Assembly (NCBI GenBank): GCA_045661325.1 | Contig: JAZRFK010000093.1 | Location: 3,585-67,584, forward strand | Source of the DNA: Eubacteriales bacterium | GTDB taxonomy: Bacteria; Bacillota; Clostridia; Oscillospirales; CAG-272 | Direction of reading: 5' to 3' | Length of the DNA stretch: 64,000 nt | Shown here: positions 52,379 through 57,383 of the stretch, piece by piece | Layout of the letters: each line of letters begins with the position of its first letter | Position numbering within the stretch: position 1 is the first letter of the stretch | Notes under the pieces: model-generated | What the model saw: only the letters and a program-made list of their open reading frames with translations | Told to the model about the DNA's origin: nothing | Databases searched by the model: none | Translations under genes and position numbers: made by a program

Positions 52379-52460
52379 GCGGGTATGGTGGAACGGCAGA
52401 CACGCTGGTCTTAGGAACCAGTTCGTAAGAGTGTGGGTTCAAATCCCACTACCCGCACCA
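52379..52460 (+). tRNA. tRNA-Leu (anticodon UAG), CCA encoded
   Basis: GCGGGTA...TACCCGCACCA forms a perfect acceptor stem. Anticodon stem-loop is CTGGT-CTTAGGA-ACCAG, T arm is GTGGG-TTCAAAT-CCCAC, and there is a long variable region. Confidence 0.9.
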
Positions 52461-52461
52461 G

Positions 52462-52498
52462 AAAAAAGGAACTTTTGTCTACCAAAAGTTCCTTTTTT
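52462..52498 (+). terminator. Terminator-like hairpin after tRNA-Leu (also the first, variable hairpin of ladder element A)
   Basis: AAAAAA-GGAACTTTTG-TCTAC-CAAAAGTTCC-TTTTTT. Confidence 0.8.
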
Positions 52499-52504
52499 GT
52501 TTAT

Positions 52505-52683
52505 CCAAGCCGCAGGCTTGGTATATCATCGACGCGCGAAGCGCGGTGCATATCATCAGCCCCTTTGGGGCTGTATCTCATCACGCGACAGCGTGTATTT
52601 TCCTGCGGCTTGATGATATACAATGCTTCGCATTGATGATATACCGCAACAAGTTGCGGATGATATCCACGCGTTACGGCGTG
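52505..52683 (+). repeat. Hairpin-ladder element, copy A (7 short hairpins separated by 3 GTATATCATC-type and 3 GATGATATAC-type linkers)
   Basis: Read directly from the sequence (see findings for the coordinates of each module). A second copy lies at 53670-53869. Confidence 0.9.
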
Positions 52684-52710
52684 ATTTGGAAGGGAGATTG
52701 CGGAAAATAC

Positions 52711-52739
52711 TTGAAGTGCTTTGCAAAATATGATATAAT
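52711..52739 (+). promoter_or_regulatory. Cassette-1 promoter (TTGAAG-17-TATAAT, TGa-extended)
   Basis: The hexamers have exact 17-nt spacing. The AAGGAG SD at 52748-52753 and the ATG at 52761 follow. Confidence 0.55.
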
Positions 52740-52760
52740 ACCATTCAAAGGAGTGATATT

Positions 52761-53108
52761 ATGGCTAAAAACTATTTATTGATATATTCGGAGCGGCTTG
52801 CGACCGATATCGAATTACTTTGTCAAAATATAAAAGCCACCTCCAACACTCTTTTCCAAATTCGCAAGAGTTCAAGTAGTGTGTACGCAAATATTCGTGA
52901 AGCCAATTACGGACAGAGCAAAGCAGATATGCTTTCGAAATTTGAAATAGCTCTTAAAGAATGTAGTGAAACAGAAGGTTGGTTACAGTTGTTATTTAAT
53001 ATGAATGCCATACATGAAGAAACCTATAAAAATTATCGAAATCTTTGCGGTCGTATCAGACGAATGTTGATTGCGAGTTGTAAAACATTAAAGGAGGATC
53101 TTAAATGA
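52761..53108 (+). CDS. Four-helix-bundle protein (23S rRNA intervening-sequence protein / Avd-like family)
   Basis: 115 aa. The core SSSSVYANIREANYGQSKADMLSKFEIALKECSETEGWLQLL matches the family pattern (SxxSIxANIxEAxGxxSxxDFxxxLxIAxxExxETxxWLxLL). Confidence 0.85.
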   Translation: MAKNYLLIYSERLATDIELLCQNIKATSNTLFQIRKSSSSVYANIREANYGQSKADMLSKFEIALKECSETEGWLQLLFNMNAIHEETYKNYRNLCGRIRRMLIASCKTLKEDLK

Positions 53109-53554
53109 AATTTCGCAGAAACGTCAAAGAAGAAAAGTTTTCCTGTGGAGTAGCAATAGGTGGTCTTGTGTTACTTGCCATACTTTTTGTTATTTTCGTC
53201 ACAACACGCGACAATGCTTTATTGAATTTGATTGTTCCTGCCATACTGATTCCGCCGCTTTCCTTTTTTATAAGCATTTCAATGAAAAAGCAATTTGTCG
53301 AATTTAAGGAAGACAAAATCATTTTGATAAACGGAAACGGACGAGATATTACGATAGATATATCTGAAATTGAAGCAATAATGATACCGTCTGCTACAGC
53401 ACTGAAAAGTAAAATACAGGATAATCCCATTATTCTTAAAAGGCGAGTAATCAAAAACATAATCTCATATAGCATTGAAATTGAAGAATATATAAAGAAA
53501 AATCTAAAAATTGACATAGTCTATTACGACAAATATAGTAGGGCTATAAAATAA
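53105..53554 (+). CDS. Two-TM membrane protein with cytoplasmic beta-rich domain (possibly bacterial PH/DUF304-like)
   Basis: 149 aa. ATGA start/stop overlap with the upstream gene. Two hydrophobic helices are followed by a ~90-aa domain. The bPH assignment rests on architecture only. Confidence 0.6.
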   Translation: MKFRRNVKEEKFSCGVAIGGLVLLAILFVIFVTTRDNALLNLIVPAILIPPLSFFISISMKKQFVEFKEDKIILINGNGRDITIDISEIEAIMIPSATALKSKIQDNPIILKRRVIKNIISYSIEIEEYIKKNLKIDIVYYDKYSRAIK

Positions 53555-53623
53555 TCATTTTTATAGTTGACCTTTTCTTCGCTTTTACCTCGATTTTTGT
53601 CCTTTTATTACGTTTAAGGCAAC

Positions 53624-53663
53624 AAAAAGAGAACATTTGTCAACCGACAAATGTTCTCTTTTT
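53624..53663 (+). terminator. Terminator-like hairpin after cassette 1 (variable first hairpin of ladder element B)
   Basis: AAAAA-GAGAACATTTGTC-AACC-GACAAATGTTCTC-TTTTT. Confidence 0.8.
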
Positions 53664-53669
53664 GTTTAT

Positions 53670-53869
53670 CCAAGCCGCAGGCTTGGTATATCATTGAATG
53701 TATAACGCGCCTGTGGGGAGATATACTTTCGTATATCATCAAGGGCGGCGAGCCGCCCTTGTATCTCATCACGCGACAGCGTGTATTTTCCTGCGGCTTG
53801 ATGATATCCAGCCCTACGGGCTGATGATATACCGCAACAAGTTGCGGATGATATACAAGGCTTTGCCTT
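53670..53869 (+). repeat. Hairpin-ladder element, copy B
   Basis: Same module order and linkers as copy A. Three blocks are identical to A, and four hairpin positions are replaced by unrelated palindromes. Confidence 0.9.
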
Positions 53870-53896
53870 GATTTATTGCCTAAAGTGTGATATAAT
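53868..53896 (+). promoter_or_regulatory. Cassette-2 promoter (TTGATT-17-TATAAT, TGa-extended)
   Basis: The hexamers have exact 17-nt spacing. It sits at the same position relative to the ladder element as the cassette-1 promoter. Confidence 0.55.
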
Positions 53897-53936
53897 TAAC
53901 ACACCGATAAATAAGAATTTGACGGAGGCAGTTACT

Positions 53937-54530
53937 ATGGATGTAATCGATCATTATGATCTGTTGATAGAAGAACAAAACGATCCCTTCCGTGATCCCC
54001 CCGTTTTACAAGAATATATGAGCAAATGGGATGGCGAACCGTTTTTGGAAGCGTTGGAGCTTTCCAAAGATAAGTCAGTTTTGGAAATCGGTATTGGCAC
54101 AGGAAGAATCGCCGTTAAGGTTACTCCGTGCTGCTTAAAGATGACAGGCATTGATATTTCTCCCAAAACCACCCAGCGAGCAAAAGATAATCTAAATGAA
54201 TACAGCAATATTTCCTTCATATGTGGCGATTTTAATGTTCACGAATTTGACGAAACATTCGATGTTATATATTCGTCCCTCACAATGATGCACTTCGAAA
54301 ACAAGGAAGCTGTCATCAACAAGGTTGACAAATTGTTAAATGATAACGGCATCTTTTGCTTATCCATTGATAAAAACCAAAGTGAATATATTGATATGGG
54401 AACTCGCAAAATCAAGGTGTATCCCGATACTCTCGATAATATAACATTGATTATCGAAGAAACCGCAATGTCGGTTGTAAATGTAATTGAAACCGATAAC
54501 GCATACATTATTGTAAGCAGAAAACAATAA
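53937..54530 (+). CDS. Class I SAM-dependent methyltransferase (small-molecule/Methyltransf_11/25-like)
   Basis: ATG at 53937 follows GACGGAGG. Motif I is VLEIGIGTGRIA, and post-I is the acidic GID. No DPPY/NPPY or cytosine-C5 motifs were seen. Confidence 0.8.
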   Translation: MDVIDHYDLLIEEQNDPFRDPPVLQEYMSKWDGEPFLEALELSKDKSVLEIGIGTGRIAVKVTPCCLKMTGIDISPKTTQRAKDNLNEYSNISFICGDFNVHEFDETFDVIYSSLTMMHFENKEAVINKVDKLLNDNGIFCLSIDKNQSEYIDMGTRKIKVYPDTLDNITLIIEETAMSVVNVIETDNAYIIVSRKQ

Positions 54531-54560: not shown

Positions 54561-54615
54561 TGGTGTACTTTTAGTCGTTCTTACCCCACTTTACGCACCT
54601 TTTGGTCGTTCTTTT
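54561..54615 (+). repeat. Direct repeat C1 (~55 bp), left boundary of cassette 3
   Basis: TGGTGTACTTTTAGTCGTTCTTACCCCACTTTACGCACCTTTTGGTCGTTCTTTT. It aligns without gaps to 57064-57118, with 6 mismatches. Confidence 0.85.
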
Positions 54616-54733
54616 CATATTTTCGGCACAATTTAGGGAAAATCAAAGCAAAATACAGGTAAATTAGGCGCTGCAGCGGTCGCAAGGACTGTCGCAGCGT
54701 TGTTTTTATGCCCGCAGCAGCGTAAAAATGGGC

Positions 54734-54753
54734 TGTACTTTTTGTCGTTCTTT
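54734..54753 (+). repeat. Partial third copy of the C-repeat 5' part (TGTACTTTTTGTCGTTCTTT)
   Basis: Matches C1 positions 54564-54583, apart from 54576 and the final base. Confidence 0.7.
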
Positions 54754-54833
54754 GCTCAAATAAAGAACAGCAAAAACATTGCGTCATGAGAGAGTTGAAC
54801 CAAAATGCTTGTAAACCTTTTCACCGTTTCCTA

Positions 54834-54862
54834 TTTACAAAAGTAAGGTATTATGCTATACT
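54834..54862 (+). promoter_or_regulatory. Cassette-3 promoter (TTTACA-17-TATACT, TGc-extended)
   Basis: The hexamers have 17-nt spacing. The GAGGAAGGA SD and the ATG at 54908 lie downstream. Confidence 0.45.
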
Positions 54863-54907: not shown

Positions 54908-56737
54908 ATGAACATAAAAAATATCAATGTTAACAAATACCCGATTTCGCAAATGTTAGACCCCGAGTCGAAAATTGTCTTTGAAATTCCGAAATACCAG
55001 CGTGAGTACATCTGGGGTGCACATCAATGGGAACAGCTGTTTGATGACCTCTCGGAAAACAACAACGGTTACTTTTTAGGATCGATAATTTGTATAAATA
55101 CGACTGTCGATTCAATCAATTCTCCGAAGTTTGAAGTCGTTGACGGACAACAGCGTCTCACAACGATCAGCATTTTTATGACTGCGCTTTATTCCGAACT
55201 TTTTAAGCTGTACGATCAATTAGACGAAGACCAGCAGGCAGATGTCCTTCAAATCAAGCGCAGACTGGTATTGAAAAAGACTGAGTCTGGAATTCGTATC
55301 ATACCGCAGGTGCAGAACAGTAACTTCGACGATTATATGGGATTGCTTGCCGAAAACAAACTAATTGCACCGAGAAGCATGCCAAAATTCGCAGGCAATA
55401 GAAGAATTGTTAAAGCGTACTGGTATTTCAAAAAGCGCATTGAAGCAGAAATTGCGGAAAGCGACGATGCAGTTGCAAAGCTGTTCGATATATTGGATAA
55501 GGTAAATTCGGCTATTCTGGTAATGATTGATGTATCGAATCATGCGGACGCATATACCCTTTTCGAATCGCTCAATAATCGTGGAACACCGCTTACGGCA
55601 GTTGACCTCATCAAAAATCTGCTTCTGTCGAAGCTCGATGTCAATGACAGCGAAAACCTCGATTACTATTTTACCCGTTGGACTGAAGTGATAGATTATA
55701 TCGGGGACGATTACTCGGTACAAGAGCGTTTCTTTCGACAAAACTACAATGCGTTTAGAAGCGCAATAAACGCACCTTTTATTAAGGATAAGGACGATCG
55801 TAAGTATCCGCTCGGACCTCTCGCAACACGGTCGACAATGCTCGATATTTACGAACGCATGGTAGTACGTAATCCAAAAGAATTTTTGGAAGTTATACTG
55901 GAACATGCAAGAATTTATTCGGGCATTATACTTCGCAACACCGAGGGTTTAGATCCTGTATTAAAGGAACGCTACCTTGATTTACAAAGAGCACAAGGTG
56001 CGCCGTCATATCTGCTTTTGATGTACCTTACAAAGAACAGTAAAACTTTAGGACTCACAGAAACGGATATGGTCGCAATAAGCGGTTTGCTGGTTCGTTT
56101 CTTCGTGCGCCGAAACTTAACAGACACGCCTCCTACTAGAGACTTAACCCGTTTGTTCATGCTGTTTATCGAAGAATTTGAACAGAACGGATACACCGGC
56201 ACAGATATTTACAATGCGCTTCGTGAAAAGCTTATCAGCTGCACAGCCAGCGATGAACTGTTTGAAGAAAAGCTTCGCGGGTCTGTTTACGCAGAAAACT
56301 TCGGCGTAACGCGTTTTGTGCTTTGTGCCTTGGCGAAAAAAGGCATGACAGTAGAGACGCAGGTGGACCTTTGGCGCATGAATAACAACAACCAGTATGT
56401 CTGGACGATTGAGCACATTTTCCCGCAGGGACAAAACATCCCAGATCATTGGGTAGATATGATAGCAGATGGTGATTCAGACAAAGCAAAGGAAATTCAA
56501 ACGCTTTATGTACACACATTCGGCAACCTCACGATCACAGGATACAACAGCACTTTAAGTAATAGGCCATTCGAAGATAAAAAGAATCATAAAGATTCCA
56601 ACGGCAATTACATTGGTTATAGAAACGGGTTGAATTTGAACGCCGATGTTTGCGACAAGGAAGCATGGACGCTCGATATTATCAAAGCGCGTACAGATAG
56701 ACTCGTAAAAGAAATTTTGGCTGAATTTCAGCTATAA
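54908..56737 (+). CDS. DUF262/DUF1524 two-domain nuclease (GmrSD-like type IV restriction family)
   Basis: 609 aa. N-terminal ParB-like DUF262 domain with the VVDGQQRLTT motif. C-terminal His-Me finger DUF1524 with WTIEHIFPQ ... HTFGNLT. Confidence 0.88.
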   Translation: MNIKNINVNKYPISQMLDPESKIVFEIPKYQREYIWGAHQWEQLFDDLSENNNGYFLGSIICINTTVDSINSPKFEVVDGQQRLTTISIFMTALYSELFKLYDQLDEDQQADVLQIKRRLVLKKTESGIRIIPQVQNSNFDDYMGLLAENKLIAPRSMPKFAGNRRIVKAYWYFKKRIEAEIAESDDAVAKLFDILDKVNSAILVMIDVSNHADAYTLFESLNNRGTPLTAVDLIKNLLLSKLDVNDSENLDYYFTRWTEVIDYIGDDYSVQERFFRQNYNAFRSAINAPFIKDKDDRKYPLGPLATRSTMLDIYERMVVRNPKEFLEVILEHARIYSGIILRNTEGLDPVLKERYLDLQRAQGAPSYLLLMYLTKNSKTLGLTETDMVAISGLLVRFFVRRNLTDTPPTRDLTRLFMLFIEEFEQNGYTGTDIYNALREKLISCTASDELFEEKLRGSVYAENFGVTRFVLCALAKKGMTVETQVDLWRMNNNNQYVWTIEHIFPQGQNIPDHWVDMIADGDSDKAKEIQTLYVHTFGNLTITGYNSTLSNRPFEDKKNHKDSNGNYIGYRNGLNLNADVCDKEAWTLDIIKARTDRLVKEILAEFQL

Positions 56738-56742
56738 AGAGA

Positions 56743-57063
56743 ATGAACATGGCAAATAGTTCAGTAATAAGGATATTGAAGCTGTACAAATTACTTCGCC
56801 AGGAAACCAACGAACAACACCCCCTGCTTGCCACTACGGTTTGTCAGCGTTTAGTTGAACAAGGTATTCCCTGCGACCGCAGGACATTAACACGAAATGC
56901 CAGAACGCTTAACGATTACGGTTACGAAGTAATGGACAGATTGGTTGGGCATGAAAAAGCTTACGCTGATATAAAATCGCAGCTGGTGGAATTGCTTGCA
57001 AAGCTGGCAGCGCTCATCAGCGAGAAGAAGCACATGTTCGGCGGCGGATACGCGTTCTTCTAA
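56743..57063 (+). CDS. HTH regulator fragment (N-terminal wHTH of the WYL/BrxR-like class, no WYL domain)
   Basis: 106 aa. IRILKLYKLLRQETNEQHPLLATTVCQRLVEQGIPCDRRTLTRNARTLNDYGYEV resembles the HTH_11-type N-terminus of WYL regulators. The ORF stops exactly at repeat C2. Confidence 0.55.
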   Translation: MNMANSSVIRILKLYKLLRQETNEQHPLLATTVCQRLVEQGIPCDRRTLTRNARTLNDYGYEVMDRLVGHEKAYADIKSQLVELLAKLAALISEKKHMFGGGYAFF

Positions 57064-57118
57064 TGGTGTACTTTGGGTCGTTCTTCCCCCACCTTACGCA
57101 CCGTTTGGTCGCTCTTTC
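57064..57118 (+). repeat. Direct repeat C2, right boundary of cassette 3
   Basis: TGGTGTACTTTGGGTCGTTCTTCCCCCACCTTACGCACCGTTTGGTCGCTCTTTC, the partner of 54561-54615. Confidence 0.85.
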
Positions 57119-57383
57119 GCAAACAGTAAAAATCCAAACCCAAAGCCGATAGGCGAAGGGGTCTGATTTTTTGTGTTCGGACTACTCTACTCTCATGGCA
57201 ACGCCCGCTGTTTCCTCTATGGGCTCGCCAATGCACGATATACCGCCATCGCGGTCTTTAACGACAGCTTTAAGCCTATAAAAGCACTACAAGAGAACAA
57301 GAATTTTTCTTACCTTTTGGCAAGAAAAGCCCGATTGCAGACCTTGCTATCTAAAAACGCAAAGCCATACAATCGGGCTTATT

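Follow-up and report, generated by a model that had tools for sequence, protein, structure and literature searches.

The stretch of DNA analysed here, 64,000 nt of contig JAZRFK010000093.1 from a Eubacteriales bacterium of the order Oscillospirales and called the window throughout, carries behind a tRNA-Leu(tag) gene two copies of a hairpin array that we term the ladder. Each copy follows a terminator and precedes a predicted promoter and one or more cargo genes (Table I), a succession that an initial annotation of the window had described as occurring twice in a row. Both copies were verified, and the same architecture is present in 79 oriented copies of the ladder. The terminators are perfect inverted repeats with an A-run before and a T-run after each, terminator A starting two bases past the end of the tRNA gene (52460); by sequence they have the GC-containing stem and T-run of a terminator, and the promoters have sigma-A hexamers (TTGACA-17-TATAAT-like). 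The ladders lie where they had been placed and have the composition given to them, with three motifs, then three inverted ones, and GC-rich hairpins between. The TGnTATAAT promoters with 17-nt spacing are also present, at two offsets from the last hairpin rather than at the single fixed position first proposed: the -35 of promoter B overlaps that hairpin, and promoter A lies 28 nt further, past an extra conserved segment of ~27 nt. As to the cargo, the four-helix-bundle protein (PF05635) and the S-adenosylmethionine (SAM) methyltransferase stand as annotated; the presumed membrane protein, here called ORF2 (for open reading frame), belongs to no Pfam family and has two hydrophobic segments by eye. 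The GC content is 33-45% over 52.5-57 kb as against mostly 47-53% in the flanks, and the remainder of the window is core chromosome, with genes for topoisomerase I, SMC, MetRS, enolase and sporulation.

On the + strand ladder A begins with ATCC and a hairpin, H0 (CCAAGCCGCAGGCTTGG, 52505-52521), followed by three (G)TATATCATC linkers of the GTATATCATC type, each with a GC-rich hairpin. The centre hairpin (52583-52596), an A/T-rich spacer and segment X' (CCTGCGGCTTG, 52602-52612), which is complementary to the 5' arm plus loop of H0, come next, and three GATGATATAC-type linkers, each with its hairpin, lead to a final GATT. In ladder B, H0 is at 53670-53686 and the last hairpin at 53857-53869; between its first and second left motifs lies an atypical segment of ~36 nt, GAATGTATAACGCGCCTGTGGGGAGATATACTTTC (53696-53731), that lacks the usual clean hairpin. 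Counted over the whole window as a 9-mer with at most one mismatch, the linker motif occurs 31 times, against 6.8 +/- 2.7 expected, with 12 of these in the two ladders and 1 in promoter A. When each strand of the ladder is folded, it scores far better than its shuffles (z-scores -4.1 to -6.8).

Table I. Features at the tRNA-Leu(tag) locus, in positions of the window
Feature	Position	Strand	Basis or detail
tRNA-Leu(tag), anchor	52379..52460	+	ARAGORN; Rfam tRNA 60.6 bits
Terminator A, bidirectional A-run/hairpin/T-run, apex TTTGTCTACCAAAA	52462..52498	both	16-nt arms 52462-52477 and 52483-52498, 100% complementary
Ladder A	52503..52687	+	TATATCATC-type motifs at 52522, 52549, 52574; GATGATATA-type at 52612, 52635, 52659
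Conserved spacer, TGGAAGGGAGATTGCGGAAAATAC-like, present in four-helix-bundle cassettes	52688..52710	+	Alignment
Predicted outward promoter A, TTGAAG-17-TATAAT, TG upstream	52711..52739	+	Kept in all four-helix-bundle cassettes
Cargo 1a, four-helix-bundle protein, Avd-like	52761..53108	+	PF05635 / TIGR02436
Cargo 1b, ORF2, 149 aa, overlaps cargo 1a	53105..53554	+	No Pfam family; two hydrophobic segments by eye
Degenerate cassette-end element, ends ...AAGGCA just before next A-run	53570..53621	+	Matches L264 cassette ends
Terminator B, A-run/hairpin/T-run, apex TTTGTCAACCGACAAA	53621..53666	both	21-nt arms 53621-53641 and 53646-53666, 100% complementary
Ladder B	53668..53873	+	TATATCATC-type motifs at 53687, 53732, 53762; GATGATATA-type at 53800, 53823, 53847
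Predicted outward promoter B, TTGATT-17-TATAAT, TG upstream	53868..53896	+	-35 = last hairpin arm + GATT
Cargo 2, class I SAM-dependent methyltransferase	53937..54530	+	Family search
Cassette-end element, two direct CTTTTRGTCGTTCTT half-sites	54562..54618	+	Same element closes four-helix-bundle cassettes L240-L249
Promoter-like site upstream of cargo 3	54834..54862	+	
Cargo 3, GmrSD-type type IV restriction enzyme (54908-56737) and 106-aa ORF (56743-57063)	54908..57063	+	
Cassette-end element, closes low-GC island	57064..57121	+	

The ladder is a sequence family. A scan for three spaced GATGATAT motifs, with one genome per species, returned at least 120 stretches, and an oriented-copy search with a polar signature (T-run, ATCC, H0, linker) gave, among the matches listed, 79 copies in 74 sources, which form the set for the anchor statistics; the loci compared with the window bear L-numbers (L001, L263 etc.). 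The matches of the scan are nearly all MAGs (metagenome-assembled genomes) of Clostridia, Acutalibacteraceae, Oscillospiraceae or Christensenellaceae from ruminant and other guts, and among those listed about 75 species-level MAGs of Oscillospirales carry the family, each MAG having essentially a single locus. The same pattern also caught an unrelated 24-25 nt tandem repeat, GATGATATCCGCCCCTACAGNNGNG, in L020, L046 and L074 (MAG RUG14839). A canonical ladder alternates seven short perfect hairpins with linkers, first three GTATATCATC and after them three inverted GATGATATAC, and the median core is 167 nt; all three left motifs are present in 56 of 76 copies and all three right motifs in 60 of 76. 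These 10-mer linkers are nearly invariant, the innermost left copy often being GTATCTCATC. The two ends are symmetric, running from ATC-hairpin-GTATATCATC to GATGATATAC-hairpin-GAT, and no fixed short duplication flanks the element. Full-text searches of the literature found no description of it, and Rfam covariance models, run at gathering and at permissive thresholds, matched only two tRNAs, the best value in the ladders being E = 6. Ladder A had no BLAST match among PLSDB plasmids and GenBank phages, and a viral scan for the triple motif yielded 119 loci and no true ladder. K-turn or C-box motifs, DNA uptake sequences, rolling-circle nick sites and dif sites were considered and dropped as unsupported.

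The hairpins of the ladder are of a DNA type. Each hairpin position holds 35-54 distinct sequences across the family, and the outer five pairs are 86-97% Watson-Crick compared with 42-59% for shuffled partners; all stems together comprise 1529 Watson-Crick pairs, 13 G-T pairs (0.8%) and 6 A-C pairs. On the + strand the loops of the left half are GAA, GTCA, GCA, GTTA and GTA, and those of the right half are TTC, TGC, TTGC and TAC, which on the - strand read GAA, GCA, GCAA and GTA. Each half therefore follows one grammar on its own strand, a GNA- or GNNA-loop hairpin and then GTATATCATC. In DNA, a GNA triloop with a C-G closing pair has exceptional stability. The small number of G-T pairs, the many loops that are not GNRA (GTCA, GTTA, GATA) and the mirrored loop bias together argue for hairpins in single-stranded DNA (ssDNA) rather than in a transcript. 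Taken with the perfect palindromes and the position behind a terminator, they bear out the preference of the initial annotation for a DNA element over an mRNA leader, and the strand-mirrored GNA-loop hairpins would provide an unusually clean signature of DNA hairpins functioning in vivo. The left-half motifs are unevenly spaced, at 19 to 31 nt or more; helical phasing is thus absent, and a rigidly phased array on double-stranded DNA is ruled out.

There is one real long-range pairing within the ladder, which joins the centre segment to the H0 5' arm and its loop; at least 8 covarying types of it were found, with a mean complementary run of 10.5 nt compared with 6.2 +/- 0.3 nt after shuffling. 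The left and right linkers showed no covariation in any register, C-A and C-T oppositions being frequent, and the four-way-junction rungs drawn by minus-strand RNA folding were rejected on this ground; the long-range rungs of the initial annotation thus find no support in covariation, and the predicted rungs are a by-product of the inverted symmetry.

The strongest association of the ladder had been overlooked on first reading, namely that it starts directly past a real or decayed CCA end of a tRNA or transfer-messenger RNA (tmRNA). We found a same-strand tRNA CCA 33-45 nt upstream in 41 of the 79 oriented copies, with 23 anticodons represented and only the terminator in between. The ladder always stands behind the last tRNA of an operon, and in L012 and L068 it follows a tmRNA. 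A tRNA-like ...CCA, judged by eye, precedes about 19 of 31 further copies with enough upstream sequence, and in L010, L026, L069, L094 and L110 this pseudo CCA repeats the 3' end of a tRNA located 200-500 nt upstream. The 200-500 nt between the tRNA and the copy of its own 3' end are purine-rich in L010, L026, L069, L094, L097, L110 and L242, and GAGCGAAGCG-like motifs occur near the tRNA-end copy within these segments, which resemble inserts, minimal or decayed, of a different kind of element. Ladders behind tRNA-Arg(ccg) were seen in several species (L040, L044, L085, L099). We rejected the encoded CCA as a sign of an RNA-mediated event, since it is near-universal in these taxa: 85 of 86 tRNA genes encode it, with or without a ladder behind them.

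Polarity is nearly constant, the first downstream gene being co-directional in 28 of 30 cases. A strong promoter-like site, scored within 110 nt of the ladder, is present in 36 of 71 copies compared with 1 of 71 shuffled controls, and in 19 of these 36 the -35 hexamer TTGATT is formed by the last hairpin arm plus GATT. The two offsets of the window recur as two classes across the family, about 11-13 nt and about 39-42 nt past the last motif. The right-half period of 23-26 nt (52612-52668, 53800-53856) approximates the start-to-start distance from -35 to -10, and each GATGATATACA is similar to an extended -10 (TGnTATACA) as well as to a weak -35 (TATACA). From its sequence, the real promoter looks like a perfected terminal ladder unit. 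The terminator hairpins fall into few families, that of terminator A among them, which are common to different species and tRNAs, and the terminator is thus part of the element. Terminators A and B and the hairpins of L243, L244, L248, L249, L264 and L286 have in common the apex TTTGTC(T/A)ACC(G)ACAAA, and their lower stems vary with compensating changes, which is unusual for a plain terminator; the conserved apex may mark a recognition site.

A gene for a four-helix-bundle protein is the only recurrent gene downstream of ladders, found in 10 copies and in the window ~46 nt past the ladder, and an overlapping ORF2 lies behind it in every context looked up. More than 3400 homologues of the protein were found, and the best 120 clusters, mostly on contigs of ~1 kb, are 88-94% identical to the window protein. 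For the adjacent housekeeping HAD protein two matches exceed 90% and the next are at 65-81%; no exact copy of the window HAD or four-helix-bundle protein is on record. Exact copies of one such protein, P0048, are found amid unrelated genes behind tRNA-Ala(ggc), tRNA-Gln(ttg), tRNA-Trp and a pseudo 3' end, as part of a module of ~1.03 kb that is 95-98% identical and includes terminator, ladder, promoter, four-helix-bundle gene and ORF2. The module extends from the CCA to ~58 nt past ORF2, where it ends in an element of two CTTTTRGTCGYTCTT half-sites, and close relatives lie behind tRNA-Leu, -Tyr and -Arg. Within near-identical modules the tRNA-proximal half of the ladder varies by locus, in the form of alternative hairpin alleles, and the distal half, promoter and cargo are constant, which indicates that recombination also takes place inside the array. 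The mosaicism noted for the two ladders of the window agrees with this, breakpoints being found inside the ladder of near-identical cassettes at different tRNAs.

The element at the end of the module, of ~58 nt, has two direct CTTTTRGTCGYTCTT-type half-sites and ends in ...GCA right before the next A-run terminator. A further copy in the window, at 54736-54755, adds to those of Table I, and others follow ORF2 in L240-L249, L250 and L264; among L001-L120 and L240-L265 it was seen only in those four-helix-bundle contexts, apart from single half-site-like matches in L110 and L257. It also closes the methyltransferase and GmrSD cassettes of the window, and it may represent two copies of a tRNA 3' end that have decayed.

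The tRNA-Leu(tag) locus was compared across relatives, as the initial annotation had proposed. In L257, whose HAD protein is 81% identical, the same terminator leads into a reduced hybrid ladder with a promoter, behind which a gene for an Mrr type IV restriction enzyme stands in place of the genes of the window, and a 20-nt repeat of the tRNA 3' end bounds the cassette on its far side. The payload at this tRNA thus differs in a related species, and the invariance that would speak against cassettes is not found. Synteny to the window breaks off just inside the ladder. The hybrid (L257 8060-8150) joins an H0 of the CCATTGCGAAAG type to a centre of the CCTGCGGCTTG type and documents directly that ladders of different types recombine. 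In the closest relative (95% HAD identity) the terminator has another stem, at which the contig ends, and several other contigs break within the terminator or H0; such breaks are typical of a repeated element and suggest that the element is multi-copy. A metagenome scan for the 3' half of tRNA-Leu(tag) returned zero matches.

Direct repeats of the tRNA 3' part, from the T-loop to the CCA, bracket the ladder and its cargo in L018, L040, L090 and L250, and a shorter tRNA-end repeat in L076 brackets two cassettes; scored on the same strand there are 6 such repeats, as against 1 on the other strand, which served as control. In these loci the ladder must have arrived with the insert. No tRNA-end direct repeat was found in the window.

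The grammar recurs in tandem copies elsewhere (L008, L021, L065, L069, L076, L102, L263 and L264), and the arrays of L263 and L264 hold at least three cassettes of the same order. L264 starts with tRNA-Leu/Ser/Ser, a ladder, a four-helix-bundle gene and DUF6678, continues with a terminator, an AATGATG-type array, a promoter and DUF2695, and then has a terminator, an AATGATG ladder, a promoter and a second four-helix-bundle gene. In L263 two cassettes of ladder and four-helix-bundle gene are interleaved with barnase/barstar and WapI-type genes, and further on there are cassettes in which an AT-rich long inverted repeat serves as the array. At least three sister families fill the slot between terminator and promoter: AATGATG, in which the half-orientation is opposite to that of the ladder, GATGAAATC, and the AT-rich long inverted repeat (CACTCTTCACT...AGTGAAGAAG). 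They were seen in L242, L244, L246, L248, L249 and L264 (past the second terminator), in L243 and L247, and at L263 10740-12440, L266 6470-6600 and L040 past the distal repeat. The loci compared thus yield a common grammar of a real or decayed tRNA 3' end, a terminator, an array of one of at least four families, a promoter and small cargo.

On balance we take the ladder, with reservations, to be a repeat element at the level of DNA and to form the head module of self-contained gene cassettes anchored at tRNA and tmRNA genes in gut Oscillospirales. A cassette would consist of a tRNA-like CCA end, a bidirectional terminator from the next base, the hairpin array, an outward sigma-A promoter and 1-3 cargo genes. 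The predicted terminator would halt transcription arriving from the strongly expressed stable-RNA operon and the predicted promoter would restart it for the cargo, so that a cassette with both on board should work wherever it lands. To judge from their sequences the cassettes are exchanged, as near-identical modules occur at different tRNAs and relatives have different cargo at one and the same tRNA. New cassettes would enter at or just past the tRNA 3' end and push older ones outward, with a recombinase acting in trans. The hairpins are envisaged to fold in ssDNA, each unit of GNA-loop hairpin plus GTATATCATC being read on its own strand by a protein, and the array could also supply portable homology for cassette exchange.

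A large serine recombinase is the only candidate for such an enzyme that was seen. In L263, L064 (two tandem genes) and L286, one or two genes of this kind stand directly ahead of a pseudo-CCA end and its terminator, and are co-directional with the ladder-type array and the four-helix-bundle gene that follow. In one subfamily (L263 5153-6610, L266, L267, L286, L295 and the two tandem genes of L064) the last codons of the gene form a tRNA-like GGTTCGG...CCA. This CCA is followed by a stop codon in L267 and L295 and by an A-run terminator and array in L263 and L266, where the A-run terminator from the next base removes the stop codon; the two pairs of loci therefore diverge at the CCA/A-run junction. 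In L266 the recombinase gene and a tRNA 3' end are ~200 nt apart. The link to this recombinase is weak and unproven. It could be taken further, in that the CCA/A-run junction would be the recombination site, a large serine recombinase supplied in trans would capture, stack and shuffle the self-expressing cassettes, and the ladder, as ssDNA and perhaps bound by the Avd-like four-helix-bundle protein that so often accompanies it, would be the recognition or assembly module of a tRNA-anchored counterpart to the integron in gut Clostridia; we consider this extended scheme rather unlikely. The T-loop, where the tRNA-end repeats begin, is reportedly the classic crossover point of tRNA-targeting tyrosine integrases, and repeats of this kind are their classic footprint.

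Several observations weigh against mobile cassettes. No integrase or transposase is encoded in the window (45 ORFs), and these families are not enriched among 149 ORFs within 5 kb downstream of ladders, a set in which the Y1 transposase family is absent; the segments of 0.8-2.2 kb between tRNA-end repeats also hold no recombinase. A DNA-level role is upheld, and the use of the ladder as a recombination or capture site, as put forward in the initial annotation, is something we infer, since no recombinase was found in cis. Among 80 loci with homologous recombinases none adjoins a ladder; they include one distant four-helix-bundle gene, and tRNAs in only 5. Ladder B in the window has no recognisable CCA end before it, and the near-identical cassettes of L240-L249 start at the CCA of different intact tRNAs without a direct repeat. 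Most ladders precede ordinary, apparently core genes (ksgA, HAD hydrolases, transporters) with no direct repeat detected, and many copies may thus be fixed host elements. The perfect palindromes, moreover, could be maintained by templated repair and not by function.

The main rival is a reading, possible in our judgement if doubtful, in which the ladder is a host-maintained array of the kind of repetitive extragenic palindromic (REP) sequences and bacterial interspersed mosaic elements (BIMEs), acting as a local insulator (backup read-through barrier, supercoiling sink or gyrase site) plus promoter and taking no active part in movement, and in which cassettes are duplicated and exchanged as copies at dispersed sites undergo ordinary homologous recombination. 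Its constant place between a terminator and a co-directional promoter fits such a role, as do the ordinary and diverse nature of most downstream genes with no recombinase nearby and the occurrence of ladders behind the same tRNA, tRNA-Arg(ccg) for example, in several species. At least three other array families are found in that slot, which suggests that structure counts for more than any particular site, and mosaic copies are compatible with gene conversion. An array kept by the host does not, however, explain why tRNA-end repeats bracket ladder and cargo together in L018, L040, L076, L090, L250 and L257. Nor would a purely structural role call for the conservation of the 10-mer, which is far above that need, and orthologous tRNA loci bear different H0 types, while the four-helix-bundle cassette is far more conserved than the adjoining housekeeping genes.

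Two further explanations fare worse. The array could be a structured non-coding RNA, either the 3' trailer of tRNA-operon read-through or an antisense small RNA ending at the bidirectional terminator, as might be expected from the folding of both strands well beyond shuffles and from the covariation of the hairpins and of the H0-centre pairing. We regard this as very unlikely, because a perfect intrinsic terminator precedes the ladder on the + strand and on the - strand no conserved inward promoter was noted (by eye only); the rarity of G-T pairs and the many non-GNRA loops also speak against RNA, the loop bias mirrored between the halves is unexplained by a single transcript, the linkers do not covary and there is no Rfam family. 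A true integron-type platform, with the ladder as an attC or attI site folded from one strand and an integron-like tyrosine integrase, would account for tandem arrays of small cargo genes that include defence and immunity-like functions, for hairpin-forming sites between cassettes and for tRNA 3'-end repeats that start in the T-loop. Against it, no tyrosine recombinase adjoins any array, every cassette has its own promoter and terminator, and the site is a multi-hairpin array and not one imperfect hairpin with R and L boxes; to our knowledge, integrons have not been found in Firmicutes, and we find this explanation scarcely credible.

If the ladder does head exchangeable cassettes, a large branch of the gut Firmicutes, uncultured for the most part, would possess a standard plug-in module for stacking and swapping small defence, immunity and four-helix-bundle genes beside tRNAs, filling the niche that integrons occupy in proteobacteria and rAID-1 arrays in Bacteroidales. 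It would also give a genomic context to the enigmatic PF05635 proteins, explain the assembly breaks at these loci and offer a compact natural insulator-promoter part for the engineering of Clostridia.

Comparison with known systems shows partial likeness to several. The REP/BIME/REPIN sequences of proteobacteria, mobilised by REP-associated tyrosine transposases (RAYTs), are likewise clustered short palindromic units of alternating orientation that lie in intergenic DNA past terminators, and both they and the ladder are thought to be recognised as ssDNA hairpins. In REPs the palindrome itself is conserved, with a GTAG-type tetranucleotide, whereas ladder stems vary (35-54 sequences per position) and the 10-nt linker is conserved; the ladder is moreover fixed at three plus three units, 33-45 nt past a tRNA CCA and with its own outward promoter, and there is no sequence similarity and no RAYT was seen near ladders. 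With tRNA islands and cis-mobilizable elements (CIMEs), which lack an integrase and grow by tandem accretion, the cassettes have in common insertion at tRNA and tmRNA 3' ends, tandem stacking at one tRNA and a distal T-loop-to-CCA direct repeat (L018, L040, L090, L250 and L257; shorter in L076). They differ in being only 0.4-2.5 kb long without any integrase, in the occurrence of near-identical modules at many tRNAs and in the standard terminator-array-promoter head on each cassette. Staphylococcal cassette chromosome (SCC) and pseudo-SCC elements, inserted at the 3' end of rlmH by the large serine recombinases CcrAB, also form tandem cassettes at the 3' end of a conserved gene with short direct repeats, and many of them have no recombinase of their own. 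Large serine recombinase genes lie upstream of the array in L263, L064 and L286. The target here is instead a tRNA-like CCA end, the recombinase link comprises these three loci, with no ladder at 80 homologous ones, and SCC has no hairpin array.

Integrons and rAID-1, the immunity-gene arrays of Bacteroidales (bioRxiv 10.1101/471110), resemble the cassettes as arrays of small, horizontally acquired immunity or defence genes with repetitive spacers and skewed GC; the ladder cassettes are set apart by the lack of an adjacent tyrosine recombinase, the tRNA anchor, a terminator and promoter for each cassette and a multi-hairpin repeat. PF05635, the family of the only recurrent cargo, is otherwise known from elements in stable-RNA genes, the 23S rRNA intervening sequences, and from the accessory protein Avd of diversity-generating retroelements (PMC10053308). 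Behind ladders its gene follows the stable-RNA gene instead of lying within it, carries a promoter of its own and has no reverse transcriptase nearby. The ingredients, palindromic arrays, tRNA-targeted islands and cassette arrays, are thus all of known kinds; new are the ladder family itself, apparently undescribed, its fixed placement past the CCA end and the standard terminator-array-promoter head.

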